A stretch of DNA of 64,000 nucleotides from Promethearchaeota archaeon (GTDB taxonomy: Archaea; Asgardarchaeota; Lokiarchaeia; Sigyniarchaeales; SOKP01): assembly GCA_048937405.1 (NCBI GenBank), contig JBHLNF010000007.1, positions 1 to 64,000 of the forward strand, given 5' to 3'. Numbering within the stretch: the first letter of the stretch is position 1; the number at the start of each line of letters is the position of its first letter. Below, in pieces: positions 45,856 through 61,681 of the stretch. The position numbers and the translations under genes were made by a program. Below the pieces are notes generated by a model. That model had not been told where the DNA came from. It saw only the letters and a list, made by a program, of their open reading frames with translations, and did not search any database.

Positions 45856-45959
45856 CGGGCTATAGGGGAATTGAACCCCTGACCTTTCTTTTTAAGGGAG
45901 AATTTCCCATAAATGTCAGGTTAAAAGCCTGCTGCGCTACCTGCCTGCGCCAATAGCCC
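45856..45959 (-). tRNA. tRNA-Lys(TTT) with 30-nt intron near position 44/45
   Basis: Acceptor GGGCTAT/ATAGCCC, anticodon loop CTTTTAA, T arm AGGGG-TTCAATT-CCCCT; extra hairpin 45885-45914. Confidence 0.9.
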
Positions 45960-47178: not shown

Positions 47179-47279
47179 GCCTCTGTGGCTTAGTGGTATA
47201 GCAACATTCTACATCATCATGATGAAAATGCTAAAGATTCGTAATCTGTAGATCGGGGGTTCGATTCCCCCCAGAGGCT
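47179..47279 (+). tRNA. tRNA-Thr(CGT) with 29-nt intron at 28/29
   Basis: Removing 47206-47234 restores ACAGA-TTCGTAA-TCTGT; BHB AGCA-ACA / TGCT-AAA. Confidence 0.93.
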
Positions 47280-47283
47280 TAAA

Positions 47284-48297
47284 CTATACTTCCTCTGTAA
47301 AAACAAATCTTTTTATCATTTGTAGTGCTAGCATTCTAAACGCGTCGTTTATATTTGTCCCTGTTTTTGCAGATGTTTCAATAAAAGAAAGATTTAATTT
47401 TTGCGCGAGAGCTTCTCCTTCTTCAGTTGAAATAACCCGGTTATTTTCCAAATCGATTTTATTTCCAACAAGAATTAGTGATATTTGGGGTGAAACGCTT
47501 TTAATCTCTTTAAACCAATCTTCTAGACTTTCCAAGGTTTCTTTGCGGGTAACATCATATACTAATATTCCCGCTTCCGCATTTGAGAGATATGTTTGCC
47601 TGACCCGTTTGAACTGTGCTTGGCCTGCTAAATCCCAAATTACAAAACGAACTTTTGATCCTAATCCTTGAAAATCACATTCTTTTTTCATTATAGACGT
47701 TCCAATTGTAGATTTGTAATCAGATTGAAATGAATCTTCAACAAAACGATGAACCATGCTCGTTTTACCTACTCCTCCCTCACCACCAAGGATAAGTTTA
47801 AATGCATATTCTCCTGATTGTACCTTTATTTTTTGAAGTTTGTCTACTTTCCTTTCAATATTCTTGGTTTCTTTTTCCGAAACTAATTTAGGAATTACAG
47901 GACTTACAGTTCTCCCATCAAATATTCTCGCAATTTTTTCAGCAGCTAGATAAGCATAAGGAAAAACAGGATCTACCATTGCAACTGAAGTTAAGACTGT
48001 TACAAAAATAGCTTCAGGTCCAGCTTCACAGAATATGAATCTCTGCTCTTCAGTATCGAAGGTTCCTGTTCCAAAAGAACCTGAACTAAATTCTTCTGTG
48101 ATTCTAGTTAAAACAGGTTCTACCAATGCACTAACACCTCCAATAACATCTTCCTCTACCTCAGTATCCGAAATTCCTTTTAAAGCACTCATTACTAAAC
48201 CTTCTCTATTAACTATAAGAGCAGCTATTAAATTTTCACCTATCTCTTGCTTATACCATTTTAATAAAGCTTCAAGTTTTTTCCTATCAACTGACAT
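47284..48297 (-). CDS. Roadblock/LC7 - Rab-like GTPase fusion
   Basis: N-terminal ALIVNREGLVMS roadblock pattern; GEGGVGKT, WDLAGQ, GNKID, ETSAK. Confidence 0.9.
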   Translation of the reverse strand: MSVDRKKLEALLKWYKQEIGENLIAALIVNREGLVMSALKGISDTEVEEDVIGGVSALVEPVLTRITEEFSSGSFGTGTFDTEEQRFIFCEAGPEAIFVTVLTSVAMVDPVFPYAYLAAEKIARIFDGRTVSPVIPKLVSEKETKNIERKVDKLQKIKVQSGEYAFKLILGGEGGVGKTSMVHRFVEDSFQSDYKSTIGTSIMKKECDFQGLGSKVRFVIWDLAGQAQFKRVRQTYLSNAEAGILVYDVTRKETLESLEDWFKEIKSVSPQISLILVGNKIDLENNRVISTEEGEALAQKLNLSFIETSAKTGTNINDAFRMLALQMIKRFVFTEEV

Positions 48298-48566
48298 GGA
48301 TTCAATAACATTTGTTATTTCTTTGCAACTCTAATATAAAATATACTAAATATATTTTTATATAGTAGGTTTGTTATTAAAATTTATAGAAAAAGATAGA
48401 TCTTAAGAAAACACGAATTAAAAATTCAAATTTAAAAAGATAAGATAGCTTTAGTTAAGAAATTAAGGATTTAAATGATAGTAAAATTTTAAAATATTAA
48501 AAATTTCTATTTATCAATTAAACTCTCTAAAATAATCATTATAAGAGGGAAATATTTAAGGAACAA

Positions 48567-48773
48567 GCAGGGGTAGCCAAGATTCTAGAATAAATCATCT
48601 AGAACTTTACTAGATTACCTCTAGTAGACTAGAATGGAAATTTGGTCTACGGTGCTAGAATATACCGTGATTGTACGTTTATGGTGAAACTGAGGCTCTA
48701 GTGACATAGGTCTTCGTGGGTTCGAAAATCGACGTAGGTTATACGAATTCGATAGAAAATCCCACCTCCTGCA
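48567..48773 (+). tRNA. tRNA-Leu(GAG) with introns at 15/16 (containing a nested intron), 30/31 and 59/60
   Basis: Acceptor GCAGGGG/CTCCTGC; removing 48582-48640, 48659-48688 and 48727-48759 gives a canonical Leu tRNA with CTAGA-CTGAGGC-TCTAG and T loop TTCGAAT. Confidence 0.9.
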
Positions 48774-48951: not shown

Positions 48952-51900
48952 TTAAAAAAAATCAGAAAGCTTATGCTGCTTTAATTTTGGATTATTCGTC
49001 AAACTTTCTACGTATTCCTCTATTAATACCATTCTTTGTTTTGTATAATCATCTAAATTAAAATTATCGCATAAATCCAATGCACGAGGTATATATTTTT
49101 CAATCCCTCCACGATTCACTGTTAAAATAACCCGATTTCCACATTTAGGACATTTTCCACCGTTGGATAATGGAGGGCGCCTAAATTTTTCATTACATTT
49201 AACACATCGAAATCCTTGAACTGAAAATTTTCTTAAATTTCCCAGAATATCAGGATTAAAATGGGTGGTTAATATCTTTTCAGCAACCTTTTTTGCATTA
49301 ACAGCTTTTATAATTCTGGCTAGGTGAATTTGGGCATCAATTTTATCATCCATAGTTTCATATAATTTATACGCAGATGTTATTGGCCCTTCATTAATAT
49401 TATCAGTTGGAATATTAAATCCAATATTTTCATATTGATTTGGTGTTCCTAAATGACTTTTAACAAGTTCCATTATATTTTCAATTTCAGAAGGAGAACA
49501 ATATCTTTCTGTAGCTTTATAAAACTCTAATGGATATTTCTGCAATGTATCAATATTGTGAGCTTCGATATCAATCTCATTAGGGTCAATTTTAGTGCCA
49601 ATTACCAAAGTTGCATCCATCCTCCCCCCAATTTTACTTGGAAGATAATGTCTAGAAAAATTCAACAGGGGATCTAAGAGTAGCATTACGCCATCTTCAT
49701 CCCCATCACAGTTTCTTCTCTTTGCAGCATGCCAAAAAGGATGGGCATATATAGATCTAGCAGGAGTAAAACCTATTATTCTACCCACTATTCCTGCACT
49801 AGTATGAGGCGCTAACCCTACAACTAAATGTCCTATTAAATCATTTCTATCTGATACATTATAAAAAGGTTTCATATGATAGAATAATTCTAATTCATCA
49901 TCCAGAAACTTAGCTATTTTAATAAAATATTCTGCACAATCATCGGAGAGAATAATATCTTGTACTTTTAACTCTAGAATCTGATTATCATCCTTAAGGA
50001 GATTCCCTTTAATATCTTTATCATACCCTAATGTCTTTATTGTATTTATAGATGTTCCAATTTCTTTTGGTTTAAAATGGGTTAATGGTATATCAGTAGC
50101 ATCATATCTTATTTCTGCAGTTTTATAGACTAATACTTCATTTTTTGCTCTTAAAATACCTTTCTCAATTGGTTCAGGAACTTTATACTCATTCGTTAAT
50201 CCAATAATTCCTTTTAATCTATCAGGTAATTGTACATTAAGATTTTCCAAAACTTGATTAATTTGTTCTTTTATATTAAATTTTGCCTCATTAGAAGTTT
50301 TAAGAATACTATTACATTTTTGGCAATAGGTTTCATACGTAGGGTATAGAATTTTACATTGTGAACAAATTTTTTGCAGCTCAGTATGAGTTCCACAACT
50401 AGGGCAAATATTAAAAATAGTTGATTTTCCACAATTTGGGCATTTTTTTCTGCATACTTCAATTCTAATTTTCCCTGATTTTACCACATTTTCTTTATTT
50501 CCAATATTAAATGATTTCCCTTTTTTAGATTCTAATTCAATTTCATTTTCCTTTTTACCATTATATTCCATTGCTTTTTCAAATAATCTTGTACTCCCAA
50601 CAGCATTACTTAAAGGAAAAAGTGCATGAATTCCTTTCATACTTTTCTTCTCTGATTTTTCAGGACGTCCCATTCTTGAACCCATAAAATAAGGGGCTTT
50701 ATTTTTAATTTTGAATGATGAAACCAGATAAAAATAGTTAAATACATCATCAACATTTTCTATTTTCTTAGCATCCTTATCTTTTAAATTAAAAATAGTT
50801 TTATATATAAGATTCATACTTTTACTAAAAGTAATTTTGTTTTCTTTTATTTTATGGGGAATAAATGCTTTTTCAAGAATTTTTTTAATTGGTTCCTCAT
50901 TTTCTAAGATAATTAGTTGTTCTAATTCAGAAAAACTCTTAATAAATGCTTTTCGTAGTGTTACTAACTCTGCTACTGTTAGATTCCCCCAAAAATCTAA
51001 ATAATAAGGATGGAGGGGAATATCATATTTTTTTGAAATTTTAATGGTTTCTTGGGCCGTAGGAATGTTTTTAAAAGGATTTTTTATCAATTTTTTAAGC
51101 TTTTCGTCAATAATCTCCTCCTTATTAAGAGAATTCTCCAATTCTAATGCCCACCATTCTTCTACATATCCAGAAGGGATTAATATATGATTATTTTCAG
51201 TAAATTCTCCATAACTAAATAGCAAATCGCCTAAGAATAATATTTCCTCAACTTCTTGGAAAACGGCTTTAGCTTTTTTAACACTTAAGATTTTTATTAC
51301 ATTACCATTTTTTAGTTTTATAATTGGACCCGCAATATAATTTACTGGACATATACTTGTGCTTTTCCCAGGACGTTCAATTCTCAATTGTGTACCAATT
51401 GCAACGAATTCATCTAATAAAGCCATTGTTGCAGGATGCATTCCTCCTGCAGCTAAACCTGTATCTCTAGATCGACCATATCTTATCCTATGCCCTCCGA
51501 TTTCAGACGGGTTACTAAACACTGGTCGTCCGGCGATAATATCTGCAATATATTTAGAATTAGGAGCGATTTTAATTTCTTTTTGCTTATTTACTTGTTT
51601 TTTTTCCTTTTTGGTTTCTTGGTTTTGAGCTATTTTTTTTAAATCAGCTAACCAATCCCAGCCTTCTAAGTTCATGCTATTAGCTATCTTAAGCAATTTT
51701 GGTGCCTTAAGTAAAATACCATCATTTAAAACTAAGCAAGCACCGCCTCGTATTTTATTTGTTTCAATCCTAGGTAAATCTCTAAAAGCTGAAACTTCTT
51801 CGTCCTCAGTTGAATCACCATTTATTTCTACAGGTAACTTACTGACAGCATATCGAATTTCTTTAGTAGATGAAGGGTATTGCAAATGCACTCTTCTATC

Positions 51901-52464
51901 ATATAATTTTACTTCTTCAACATACCTACCAATCTCCCCCTCAGTTGCTTCATATTTGGGAAGATTTGATTTCTTTCTAACATAATCTGCTATTAATACA
52001 CATAATGCCGTAGTTGTACCTCCTGCAGCTCTAATTGGTCCAGCAAAATATAATGATAAATATTTTTTTCCAAAATTATCTTTCCGGATTAAAATCTTAG
52101 AAATACCTTCAAGTGGAGCACTAACAACTCCCATCGTTTTAATAGCTAATCCTACTCTAATAGCTCGGTCCACTCGAGCTTCTAATGATTCAATATTTCC
52201 AATATTTTTATCTAATATATCACCAACTACTTTAAAAATTAGTTCATCTTCGGTTAAGCCATCTTTTTTTAAACCTCTTATTACTTTTGCTACACCTTTT
52301 GGTCCTACTAACTTCTCTACCCTTCCTGCTAAATCTTTTGCTTGAGGTGATTCCACTTCTAATTCAGGATCTAATCCTTTCTGACGTGCTCTTTCTGCAA
52401 TAGAATAACACTCATCTACTTGCTTTTGAATCTGATTAAAGTACAATTCCATCGTTTTACTCAT
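48952..52464 (-). CDS. polC: DNA polymerase D large subunit DP2
   Basis: GPIRAAGGT, RMGRPEK, HAAKRRNCDGDED, Zn fingers; no intein seen. Confidence 0.98.
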   Translation of the reverse strand: MSKTMELYFNQIQKQVDECYSIAERARQKGLDPELEVESPQAKDLAGRVEKLVGPKGVAKVIRGLKKDGLTEDELIFKVVGDILDKNIGNIESLEARVDRAIRVGLAIKTMGVVSAPLEGISKILIRKDNFGKKYLSLYFAGPIRAAGGTTTALCVLIADYVRKKSNLPKYEATEGEIGRYVEEVKLYDRRVHLQYPSSTKEIRYAVSKLPVEINGDSTEDEEVSAFRDLPRIETNKIRGGACLVLNDGILLKAPKLLKIANSMNLEGWDWLADLKKIAQNQETKKEKKQVNKQKEIKIAPNSKYIADIIAGRPVFSNPSEIGGHRIRYGRSRDTGLAAGGMHPATMALLDEFVAIGTQLRIERPGKSTSICPVNYIAGPIIKLKNGNVIKILSVKKAKAVFQEVEEILFLGDLLFSYGEFTENNHILIPSGYVEEWWALELENSLNKEEIIDEKLKKLIKNPFKNIPTAQETIKISKKYDIPLHPYYLDFWGNLTVAELVTLRKAFIKSFSELEQLIILENEEPIKKILEKAFIPHKIKENKITFSKSMNLIYKTIFNLKDKDAKKIENVDDVFNYFYLVSSFKIKNKAPYFMGSRMGRPEKSEKKSMKGIHALFPLSNAVGSTRLFEKAMEYNGKKENEIELESKKGKSFNIGNKENVVKSGKIRIEVCRKKCPNCGKSTIFNICPSCGTHTELQKICSQCKILYPTYETYCQKCNSILKTSNEAKFNIKEQINQVLENLNVQLPDRLKGIIGLTNEYKVPEPIEKGILRAKNEVLVYKTAEIRYDATDIPLTHFKPKEIGTSINTIKTLGYDKDIKGNLLKDDNQILELKVQDIILSDDCAEYFIKIAKFLDDELELFYHMKPFYNVSDRNDLIGHLVVGLAPHTSAGIVGRIIGFTPARSIYAHPFWHAAKRRNCDGDEDGVMLLLDPLLNFSRHYLPSKIGGRMDATLVIGTKIDPNEIDIEAHNIDTLQKYPLEFYKATERYCSPSEIENIMELVKSHLGTPNQYENIGFNIPTDNINEGPITSAYKLYETMDDKIDAQIHLARIIKAVNAKKVAEKILTTHFNPDILGNLRKFSVQGFRCVKCNEKFRRPPLSNGGKCPKCGNRVILTVNRGGIEKYIPRALDLCDNFNLDDYTKQRMVLIEEYVESLTNNPKLKQHKLSDFF

Positions 52465-52582: not shown

Positions 52583-54032
52583 GTGAACTACACACAGCCT
52601 AAAGGCTGTGGCTTCCTACGAGTGCACAACCGCTTCTATTACGGGTTGGCCTGTATGTCGTAGAAAACCATTCCATTGTGAGAGGAATGATTCCTCGTTC
52701 ACGGAGGATTCATGCGATAAGAAATCGAATTTATGTTTCTCTGACAAAAACCGGATCATGATATTGATTGCTGAGTTGAGATCTCGGTCAATACGATTTC
52801 CACAGTCACAAGTAATACTTCTCTCGAAAATTACCCTCTTTTCGAGCTTTCCACATTTACAGCAAGCTCTTGTGGTCTTGGATTCATCAATTCTTATTAC
52901 TTTTTTACCTATTTTTTCCGCTTTGTAGGTTAAGAATTCGACAAATCGTGACAAGTAGCCTGTGTTGTGAACCGAATGGTTGAGTGTGTTATTTAATCTA
53001 TTTTTTTTAGCATTACCCGTTCCTTTCTTCTTTTGAGCCATCTGTTTTACTTTTAAGTCTCCAACAATAATCGTATTCGCTTTAGTATTAGATACAATTT
53101 GGTTTGAGAGCCAATGCTGGAAATCTTTCAGCTGATAAGAGCATTTTTTAATCATCCGAAGCAGTTTTGAATTATACCATTGCCATTTATTACTGTATCT
53201 CTTACAATGATCTCGTTTTGAGTGTACTTCTTCTATCTTTTTTTTCCAATAGAGGTCTACTCTTCTGTGAGTGAATTGCACTGAGTTTCTAGAAAGGTTT
53301 ACCCCGACTGTTTGGTTTATTCCTAAATCAAATGCTTGATATGAGCGATTATCATGATATTCAGGTACTTTGACATCGTATGTGAGGGAAATATACCATC
53401 TCTCATCAGACTGAAAAAGTTCTGCTTGCTTAATAGTCCCTTGAGGAATGAGATGAGATGGAACTTCAAATTCAAGCACTATGTTTGAAGGATGTTTATG
53501 AGAGAAGAGGATTGAACTCTCTTGTAATTTAAAGCCAGACTGATTATAACAAAGGGTGGTGAAATACTTCTTCCCTTTAAATCGGGGGGGTTTTGCATCT
53601 TTATCTCCCTTTTTCCATAGCACAAAGAAGGATTTATAGTTTGCCTCGAGTTTTTTCAGTATTGTTTGGAGAACCTTCGAATATACCCACTTATATTCGG
53701 GAAATTTCTCTTTTAACTCCGGTAATGCTCTTGATTGAATAAGATAATCAATATAATGACGTTTTTCTCGTAGAAGATTCTCATTTTTGTGCCAATTTTC
53801 CATTCGTTCCGCTAACGCAAAATTATATAAAAGACGGCATTTCTCCGATAAGATCCAAAGAAGGAGTTCTTGCCTTTTATTTGGGAATATCCTAATTCTA
53901 TGCGTTAGTTTCATTTCTGTAATGATAGTACACCACAAATTAAAAAAGAGGAGTGTATCATTATTTAGTGATTTTCTCTTCATACGTAATTTATCCCTTC
54001 TCTAAAGGGAAGTGTATTTTTGAGCTTTTCTG
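52583..54032 (-). mobile_element. IS200/IS605-family (IS1341-like, TnpB-only) element
   Basis: Right end GAAGCCACAGCCTTTAGGCTGTG..GTAGTTCAC; left-end TCCCTT/AAGGGA hairpin preceded by TTTAT; no tnpA. Confidence 0.85.
52616..53914 (-). CDS. tnpB: RNA-guided endonuclease TnpB
   Basis: HTH start MKLTHRIRIFP, PRFK, AFDLG, IVGDL, IDESKTTRACCKCG, DRDLNSAINI; ATG 53914 preferred over 53983. Confidence 0.95.
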   Translation of the reverse strand: MKLTHRIRIFPNKRQELLLWILSEKCRLLYNFALAERMENWHKNENLLREKRHYIDYLIQSRALPELKEKFPEYKWVYSKVLQTILKKLEANYKSFFVLWKKGDKDAKPPRFKGKKYFTTLCYNQSGFKLQESSILFSHKHPSNIVLEFEVPSHLIPQGTIKQAELFQSDERWYISLTYDVKVPEYHDNRSYQAFDLGINQTVGVNLSRNSVQFTHRRVDLYWKKKIEEVHSKRDHCKRYSNKWQWYNSKLLRMIKKCSYQLKDFQHWLSNQIVSNTKANTIIVGDLKVKQMAQKKKGTGNAKKNRLNNTLNHSVHNTGYLSRFVEFLTYKAEKIGKKVIRIDESKTTRACCKCGKLEKRVIFERSITCDCGNRIDRDLNSAINIMIRFLSEKHKFDFLSHESSVNEESFLSQWNGFLRHTGQPVIEAVVHS

Positions 54033-60208: not shown

Positions 60209-61681
60209 TTAACCTTTCACTACTCCAATAGGAATAAGTCTTACCACTTTTTCTACAATCCCAAGATCATGACTTACTTGAACAACTTGATCTATATCCT
60301 TGTAAGCACCAGGAGCCTCTTCAGCAATAACTTTCATCGTAGCAGCTCGAACCATAATACCTTTTTTGCTTAGATCATCTTTAACTCGATCTCCCCAATA
60401 TTTCTTTGTTGCTTTGGATCTCGACATTACCCTCCCTGAACCATGAGCTGTCGAACCAAAAGAAAGATCCATTGCATTTTGCTTACCTACACATAGATAC
60501 GAGGCAGAACCCATAGTCCCCGGGATTAAAACTGGTTGTCCTATTGATTTATAATCATTCGATAAAGCAGGATGTTCAGGAGGAAAAGCTCTAGTTGCCC
60601 CTTTTCTATGAACATTCAATTTCATCTTCTTTCCATTTACTTTGTGTTCTTCTATTTTTAATATATTATGGCACACTCCATATATCAAATGCAAATCTAA
60701 TTCATCAATATCCTTTTTGAACGTATTTTGAAAGGATTCTCTTAACCAATGAGTAATAAGTTGACGATTTGTAAACCCAAAATTTGCAGCACAACCCATT
60801 TGTTTCAAATAATTCTGGGCTTCTGGTGTATCAGCAGGTACACAAGCTAACTCTCTATCAGGTACTTTAATATTATATTTTTTCATTGCTTGTTCGATAT
60901 TGCGTAATGAATCAGTACATACTTGATGACCAAGAGCTCTACTCCCTGTATGTATCATAACTGTAATTTTGTCTTTTCCATTTATACCTAACGTTTTGGC
61001 AATACTTTCATTGTATATTTTGTCAACCTTTTGAATTTCCAAAAAATGATTCCCACTCCCCAATGATCCTAGTTGTTTAATAGCTCGCTGCTTTGCTTTT
61101 TGTGAAACTAAACTTGCATCCACATCTTTTAAACATCCATTCTCCTCTAAATGTTTAAGATCTTCTTCAATGGCATAGTCGTTTTCTATTGCCCAGTTCA
61201 CACCATTATTTAGGACAGTATCTAAGTCAGAGTAACTTATACTAAGTTTACCTTTCGACCCTAATCCTGAAGGGATATTAGTAAAAATAGTATCTAAGAG
61301 ATTTGGCAAGACCCCCTTAATATCAGTAAGAGATAAATTTGATCTCAATAATCTTACTCCACAATTAATATCATATCCTACACCACCCGGAGAGATCATT
61401 CCATTCTCTGCATCTGTCCCCGCAACACCCCCAATACAAAATCCATATCCTTGATGAGCATCCGAAAGAGCTATCGCATGCTTCTCTATCCCGGGTAAAC
61501 AAGCAACATTGCATATTTGATCTAATGTACGATCTAATCGAATTTTTTCCAATATATATTCATTCGCATAAATTTTTACTGGAACCCTCATCTCAAATTT
61601 CTCAATATTCCCTTTAATCCTTGCCATTAAGGTTTTTGGAGGAATCTCGTAGACATTGTCTGCTATTTTAGTAACATTCAT
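60209..61681 (-). CDS. rtcB: RNA-splicing ligase RtcB
   Basis: DAHQGYGF, GYDINCGVR, GSGNHFLE, HTGSR, HRKGAT, HGSGR, EEAPGAYK. Confidence 0.98.
   Translation of the reverse strand: MNVTKIADNVYEIPPKTLMARIKGNIEKFEMRVPVKIYANEYILEKIRLDRTLDQICNVACLPGIEKHAIALSDAHQGYGFCIGGVAGTDAENGMISPGGVGYDINCGVRLLRSNLSLTDIKGVLPNLLDTIFTNIPSGLGSKGKLSISYSDLDTVLNNGVNWAIENDYAIEEDLKHLEENGCLKDVDASLVSQKAKQRAIKQLGSLGSGNHFLEIQKVDKIYNESIAKTLGINGKDKITVMIHTGSRALGHQVCTDSLRNIEQAMKKYNIKVPDRELACVPADTPEAQNYLKQMGCAANFGFTNRQLITHWLRESFQNTFKKDIDELDLHLIYGVCHNILKIEEHKVNGKKMKLNVHRKGATRAFPPEHPALSNDYKSIGQPVLIPGTMGSASYLCVGKQNAMDLSFGSTAHGSGRVMSRSKATKKYWGDRVKDDLSKKGIMVRAATMKVIAEEAPGAYKDIDQVVQVSHDLGIVEKVVRLIPIGVVKG

Follow-up and report, generated by a model that had tools for sequence, protein, structure and literature searches.

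The tRNA-Leu(GAG) gene of a Promethearchaeota (Loki-type) genome carries, at tRNA position 15/16, a 59-nt insert that is very probably composite by descent: a 30-nt intron lodged inside a 29-nt one. Judged by its distribution, the 59-nt form moves between lineages within its genus together with a block of upstream DNA, and in relatives that block runs on into the gene for a candidate nuclease. Our account as a whole, a nested pair of BHB introns spread by collaborative homing, is one we hold with somewhat more belief than doubt; that the spread of the pair was driven by a nuclease we think likely. What deserves follow-up is the series of alleles and the link to the nuclease. The locus gives a named candidate enzyme family for the spread of archaeal tRNA introns, along with natural substrates that have no intron, the 29-nt intron or the 59-nt insert, and a second locus, tRNA-Ile(GAT). 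The nested insert also offers EndA a natural substrate of intron-in-intron type, and makes plain that counts of contiguous inserts underestimate introns.

The window, by which we mean the whole stretch of 64,000 nt that was analysed, belongs to a genome of 4.47 Mb and 29% GC; most of the orthologous loci likewise bear Promethearchaeota taxon labels. The gene lies at 48567-48773, flanked by genes for a Roadblock-Rab-like GTPase and for the large subunit of PolD (DP2). A heuristic and incomplete census recovered about 40 tRNA genes in the genome, most of them interrupted by one, two or three inserts some 30 nt long; within it our gene, at 207 nt, is the longest and the sole one for tRNA-Leu(GAG). 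ARAGORN and Rfam did not detect it at 48567-48773. Both EndA and RtcB are encoded. There are two EndA-family genes, on contigs C27 and C8, one with a Tyr/His/Lys triad and the other without the His by our reading of the sequences. The tRNA gene is presumably functional, its precursor processed by these enzymes. Two further tRNA genes in the window, tRNA-Thr(CGT) at 47179-47279 (+) and tRNA-Lys(TTT) at 45856-45959 (-), each have one non-canonical insert of about 30 nt.

Table 1. Features of the tRNA-Leu(GAG) locus and of the window (window coordinates).
Feature	Position	Strand	Remarks
Roadblock-Rab-like GTPase gene	47284-48297		
Upstream block common to carriers of the 59-nt insert	48462-48566		in relatives runs on into a divergent gene for an EDxHD-like nuclease, or into what remains of it
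Exon 1 (tRNA positions 1-15)	48567-48581	+	G6 and A9; A6 and T9 in most non-carriers
15/16 insert, 59 nt	48582-48640	+	
Outer 15/16 intron, 5' part, 23 nt	48582-48604	+	7-bp hairpin; basis includes the 29-nt-only alleles L075 and L076
Inner intron, 30 nt	48605-48634	+	HBh' motif of canonical form; central helix 4/4, stem of 9 bp
Outer 15/16 intron, 3' part, 6 nt	48635-48640	+	central-helix strand and 3' bulge
Exon 2 (positions 16-30)	48641-48658	+	
30/31 intron, 30 nt	48659-48688	+	central helix 4/4, three of its pairs G-U; two 3-bp outer helices
Exon 3	48689-48726	+	anticodon GAG at 48692-48694, long variable arm
59/60 intron, 33 nt	48727-48759	+	central helix 3/4 (relaxed); two 5-bp outer helices
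Exon 4 (positions 60-73)	48760-48773	+	no encoded CCA
PolD large subunit (DP2) gene	48952-52464		
RtcB ligase gene	60212-61519	-	single match in the genome

Excision of 59, 30 and 33 nt would leave an 85-nt tRNA-Leu(GAG), exactly the length of the intron-free orthologues. The initial annotation had put inserts of these lengths at 15/16, 30/31 and 59/60, and it was right: each is missing in some orthologue. The 30/31 intron is absent from L012, L022 and L027 and the 59/60 intron from L004 and L019, with the 15/16 insert gone as well from L027 and L019. Shifted registers, at 31/32 and 58/59, gave poor motifs. The description of every junction as BHB-like needs some adjustment. The inner and 30/31 introns are canonical in class, the latter with its three G-U pairs; the outer 15/16 and 59/60 introns are of the relaxed class, their central helices only 3/4 (a G.A apposition) and their flanking stems long. 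In the 29-nt allele L075 the central helix is 4/4. Within the 59-nt insert we recovered what had been drawn there from the first: an inner unit at 48605-48634 with a CTAG helix (four of four pairs, all Watson-Crick), AAC and AAT bulges and a 9-bp stem and, once this unit is removed, an outer intron of 29 nt with a 7-bp stem. The 3' strand of the outer hairpin (48582-48604) doubles as the 5' strand of the inner central helix.

Relatives with the 29-nt form only had been named beforehand as a test of the nesting, and they exist. A metagenome scan with the start of the outer intron as query found L075 and L076, which have 29 nt at 15/16, the outer intron alone, and five further 59-nt alleles besides; a scan of contigs showed no further 29-nt allele among the archaeal matches listed. 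Without the 30 nt at the predicted BHB cut site, the L072 insert is letter for letter the L076 intron, and a single clade holds the series of no insert (L105), 29 nt (L075, L076) and 59 nt (L072-L074). The inner element thus lies wholly within the outer and is separable from it, which is the architecture of a twintron.

Conservation points the same way. Across 16 distinct 59-nt alleles, 63/64 inner helix pairs and 95/96 outer stem pairs are kept, and the outer intron is 29 nt in all 16, with indels confined to the inner loop. Just one allele, L157, has a broken inner helix; the inner stem offers one two-sided compensatory change in all (L012). Three copies of CTAG are conserved together, the second of them invariant (16/16) beside a variable loop (minor fraction 0.27), and this favours the nested model, since it is the sole model that requires all three. 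Reading the 59-mer as two introns side by side does not work, since its bases 39-42 cannot pair with 10-13. Together with the 29-nt alleles, the conservation pattern supports the intron-in-intron architecture. How the pair arose is another matter. Introns at 15/16 in related genera are mostly single units of 30-33 nt, which makes the compound insert (59 = 29 + 30) the probable derived state regardless of whether L075 and L076 represent a primitive condition or a reversion; a 6-nt direct repeat flanks the inner unit, so DNA slippage alone could yield 29-nt alleles. No donor of the inner intron turned up in 134 genomes of the family, where matches with up to two mismatches were all orthologous and those with three were at control level.

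Splicing, and its order, we infer; the pattern of conservation and the fold energies speak for the following order. The inner intron would be cut out and its ends ligated first, which would join the outer hairpin to its central helix and so make the outer intron cuttable; the BHB motifs of the 30/31 and 59/60 introns would form independently. As the main route, this two-step order seems to us somewhat the better bet. The computed folds are what we count against it: a competing outer hairpin is the first to form, takes up about 97% of the window's ensemble and hides the inner helix, which stays at or below 1% there and in most alleles, so inner-first splicing would need refolding on the enzyme. 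The same 6-nt repeat allows a shortcut, in that the first CTAG can pair with the third to give a BHB for the entire insert. The insert might then be composite by descent and yet spliced in one step, EndA cutting the outer sites only and freeing a 59-nt intron, with the inner motif a relic or a minor route. This we consider rather unlikely, though it has its merits. The 6-bp pairing of first with third CTAG is well kept, at 93/96 pairs and with all six in 13/16 alleles; the inner helix seldom occurs in the computed ensemble; and heteromeric EndA enzymes accept relaxed BHB motifs (PMC4090602). It leaves unexplained, however, the invariant second CTAG, the fixed 3-nt bulge and a first stem pair kept in 16/16 alleles. 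Of 11 alleles, 9 have a lower energy for the inner-BHB fold than for the one-piece fold, the outer hairpin being favoured over either; the one-piece fold has a probability near 0 in the window, and in L003 and L071 the pair next to the one-piece helix is broken while the inner motif is intact.

The 59-nt form does not follow its hosts. Its carriers are scattered over the tree of the flanking Rab-like gene, requiring 7 changes, and their monophyly is rejected there (AU p 2.5e-8) as it is on the DP2 tree (p 2.3e-50). On DP2, about 0.05 changes per site are all that separate one carrier, L108, from the intron-free L101, L103 and L106, and the 30/31 intron of L108 is exactly that of L101. What the carriers share is the upstream block (about 105 nt), present in 15/16 scored carriers vs 0/39 non-carriers. 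Over 85 nt upstream, distant carriers are 0.79 identical vs 0.62 for equally distant non-carriers. Nine carriers keep a remnant of the nuclease ORF, cut short at different points; the window has no remnant, and the block alone remains there. Nuclease and ORF-less intron are thus co-inherited against the host tree, a pattern expected of collaborative homing. Two findings we count against a nuclease drive: on the Rab tree the 59/60 intron is just as scattered, at 7 changes, and no nuclease is known for it, and the upstream block is missing from the 29-nt alleles and from L007. The last (G089:C501) is a nested allele in a different context, in a genome assigned to another genus; secondary transfer and a binning error are candidate readings.

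All the nucleases and remnants beside Leu(GAG) accompany a 15/16 intron, of four sequence types. None of the copies beside 59-nt nested alleles is demonstrably intact: that of L157 (P0001, 338 aa) is near-complete with an early stop, and that of L205, also near-complete, is split in two. Intact homologues, placed before Leu(GAG) in divergent orientation, are that of L138 (389 aa) and P0002, each with a different 15/16 intron. The L138 protein was modelled (pLDDT 85) with a putative zinc ribbon, two HTH repeats and one further domain. The best structural match of that domain is the catalytic domain of I-Bth0305I (3r3p_B; Z 8.9, rmsd 3.0, 98 aligned), the Z being borderline and near the level of a common fold arrangement, and its second is Vsr (Z 8.2). 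A D, the motif E-x-D-G-x-Q-H-D and a C-x2-C are invariant in the family (D261, E279, D281, H285), and the helical repeats of the N-terminal region match HTH folds, with weak Pfam HTH matches; no significant match to a nuclease came from Foldseek, from Pfam or from a sequence search of the PDB. We read the linked ORF as a putative homing endonuclease of EDxHD type, on the strength of the modelled Vsr-like fold with its acidic and His residues. The EDxHD family, to which I-Bth0305I belongs (PMC3239194, PDB 3R3P), includes free-standing members. I-Bth0305I and the L138 family have in common a Vsr-like C-terminal catalytic fold, acidic and His residues and an N-terminal HTH; they differ in sequence (14% identity), and the L138 family has two HTH repeats and a putative zinc ribbon and is not intron-encoded. 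We also considered the downstream neighbour of the tRNA in relatives as a nuclease and rejected it, as it resembles a peptidase (M28 match).

Among the 301 genomes searched, the nuclease family is confined to one family of Promethearchaeota, and there it keeps company with tRNA genes. A script placed 23/30 members within 700 nt of one (25/30 when L157 and L205 are counted by eye), vs 40/2035 control ORFs (2%). At tRNA-Ile(GAT) a 5' intron is present in 8/8 nuclease-flanked alleles vs 19/64 others, a count in which L282 was corrected by eye and four of the eight entered the set by way of their nuclease. The genomes are related, so none of these counts on alleles and adjacency are independent. 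L143 and L144 have a near-identical nuclease beside differing tRNA-Val introns, which we count against simple homing. The eight tRNA-Ile(GAT) loci with a paralogous nuclease upstream (L222, L223, L225, L227, L228, L231, L232 and L285) have a further peculiarity, in that the 5' intron is preceded by a second copy of the tRNA's first 13 or so bases. The tRNA-Ile(GAT) copy of the window's own genome, G000 (C29:30203), has neither the upstream nuclease nor the 5' intron. The same genome has two distant homologues of the nuclease domain, at C7:328930-329391 (-) and C7:42957-43322 (-); no tRNA was seen beside the former.

For DNA cleavage, its target site and the direction of transfer we infer the following. 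A free-standing EDxHD-type nuclease would cut the intron-free allele of a recipient, and repair would copy nuclease gene, promoter block, exon 1 and intron as one gene-conversion tract. The nuclease probably cuts only alleles that lack the intron, so the intron would protect its host. After the spread the nuclease would decay, until, as in the window, just the promoter block is left. Alleles with the nuclease and no intron were found at neither Leu(GAG) nor Ile(GAT), a pattern that co-conversion predicts equally. More tentatively, and here we lean slightly towards doubt, the EDxHD-type family of Promethearchaeota as a whole may target intron-free tRNA genes, with short BHB introns serving as immunity marks homed from one species to another and with repeated rounds stacking them one inside another, so that they would need splicing in order. 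If nucleases do target intron-free tRNA genes, that would be a DNA-level mechanism for the spread of archaeal tRNA introns.

Nearly as good a fit comes from a model in which the intron is a passenger and the DNA upstream is what is cut. The nuclease would cut an upstream intergenic site, or recognise polymorphisms in exon 1, and the intron would merely be co-converted. Co-conversion is established elsewhere (PMC2988022), and the intron lies just 200 nt or so from the nuclease start. Members of the family flank many tRNA genes in differing orientations, and the introns of L143 and L144 differ beside the same nuclease, as this model would have it. We nevertheless think it the less probable course by a good way. 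Alleles with the cassette and without the intron number 0/39 among Leu(GAG) non-carriers and 0/8 among the nuclease-flanked Ile(GAT) alleles, four different 15/16 intron sequences accompany the nuclease, and G6 and A9 of exon 1 are not required (L072-L074).

To do without a nuclease drive altogether, the genus would have to have started out with the 59-nt form and then repeatedly lost it, or had it shuffled, through ordinary recombination, with the ORF an incidental neighbour. Gain and loss are indistinguishable from the change counts, and the patchiness of the 59/60 intron is of the same kind. Every loss, though, must replace the upstream block too; carriers resemble one another upstream more closely than the divergence of their hosts would permit, the ORF decays from different points in different lineages, and the family is strongly enriched beside tRNA genes. 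We find this improbable. Least credible of all, and largely refuted by the sequences, is the notion that an insert rich in palindromes parses as nested by chance, or that the gene is a pseudogene: some inner BHB does appear in 11% of shuffled 59-mers, and tRNA scanners miss the gene, but inner BHB and restored outer stem occur jointly in 0.28% (a shuffled 30-mer at the inner site has a 4/4 helix and a stem of at least 4 bp in 0.2-0.3% of trials), the 29-nt alleles lack exactly the inner unit, the exons are conserved in >50 orthologues and no other GAG gene was found in the genome.

Set against what is known, the count of four introns is ordinary for Asgard archaea and no record. The initial annotation had held multi-intron tRNAs to be known mainly from Thermoproteales, with up to three introns, and four with nesting to be exceptional. 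The former does not hold, as such tRNAs are not limited to Thermoproteales (PMC11291895) and Asgard tRNA genes have up to five intervening sequences (Goswami et al., 10.64898/2026.10.13.758758); the latter was overstated, nested and order-dependent archaeal introns having been described already, to go by the citations of them in PMC3978253 and PMC3728597. Goswami et al. report, as we do, several short non-canonical BHB introns per gene at D-arm and T-arm sites, gained repeatedly, in genes that standard scanners miss. The word "nested" is absent from their preprint, where a contiguous insert counts as one unit, whereas here one insert is read as two introns; and they see no general route of arrival, mobile elements included, in their focal families, whereas here there is a link to a nuclease gene. 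In the nested multiple-intron pre-tRNAs of Thermoproteales (Sugahara 2007; Tocchini-Valentini 2009), as they are cited in PMC3978253 and PMC3728597, the last BHB forms after other introns are removed, much as we propose. Those citations concern structural dependence, while here the inner intron is wholly inside the outer, alleles of 0, 29 and 59 nt exist and a one-step bypass is conceivable.

The closest parallels to the mode of spread come from phages, where in collaborative or trans homing a free-standing nuclease serves an ORF-less intron (PMC2988022, PMC2790892). These systems and T4 SegB resemble ours in the free-standing nuclease gene beside its presumed target, the co-conversion of flanking markers and the decay after spread. 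SegB, an intronless homing beside tRNA genes, parallels the passenger model. The phage introns are group I ribozymes; here the setting is a chromosomal archaeal tRNA gene with protein-spliced 30-nt BHB introns and a predicted nuclease, and no virus is evident. Group II/III and group I twintrons also have an intron within an intron, removal of the inner restoring the outer, by a different chemistry; for the nested tRNA insert the order of splicing is a predicted one. In a literature search of mostly open-access papers we found none on an intron inside a tRNA intron and none on nucleases homing archaeal tRNA introns. The route by which tRNA introns arrive and spread is stated to be open for Thermoproteales (PMC4090602), as is the route of their arrival for Asgard archaea (10.64898/2026.10.13.758758).

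Several other observations were made along the way. Introns also appear to have been copied within genes of the Leu(GAG) family, since a 14/15 intron matches the 30/31 intron of the same gene in L021, L025, L026 and eight other orthologues; over the first bases the agreement is 24/24 in L021 and 23/24 in L025, and about 7/24 to introns elsewhere. Locus L138 (243-360, -) has a second, unrelated 59-nt insert at Leu(GAG) 15/16 beside its intact nuclease, made of two hairpins with no clean nested parse and followed by another Leu tRNA fragment. Long D-loop inserts of varying length, with the look of stacked introns, are found in tRNA-Leu(TAA) at G000:C16:73710-73886 (+) and in L062, L065 and L066. 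In the window itself a 455-aa ORF directly upstream of the DP2 gene (52616-53983, -) looks by eye like an IS200/IS605 TnpB, with a zinc finger and a RuvC-like end. Lastly, a candidate Ile UAU tRNA (anticodon TAT) at G000:C7:233104-233285 (-), orthologue L229, has a 53-nt insert at 37/38 as well as two D-arm introns that lie next to each other.
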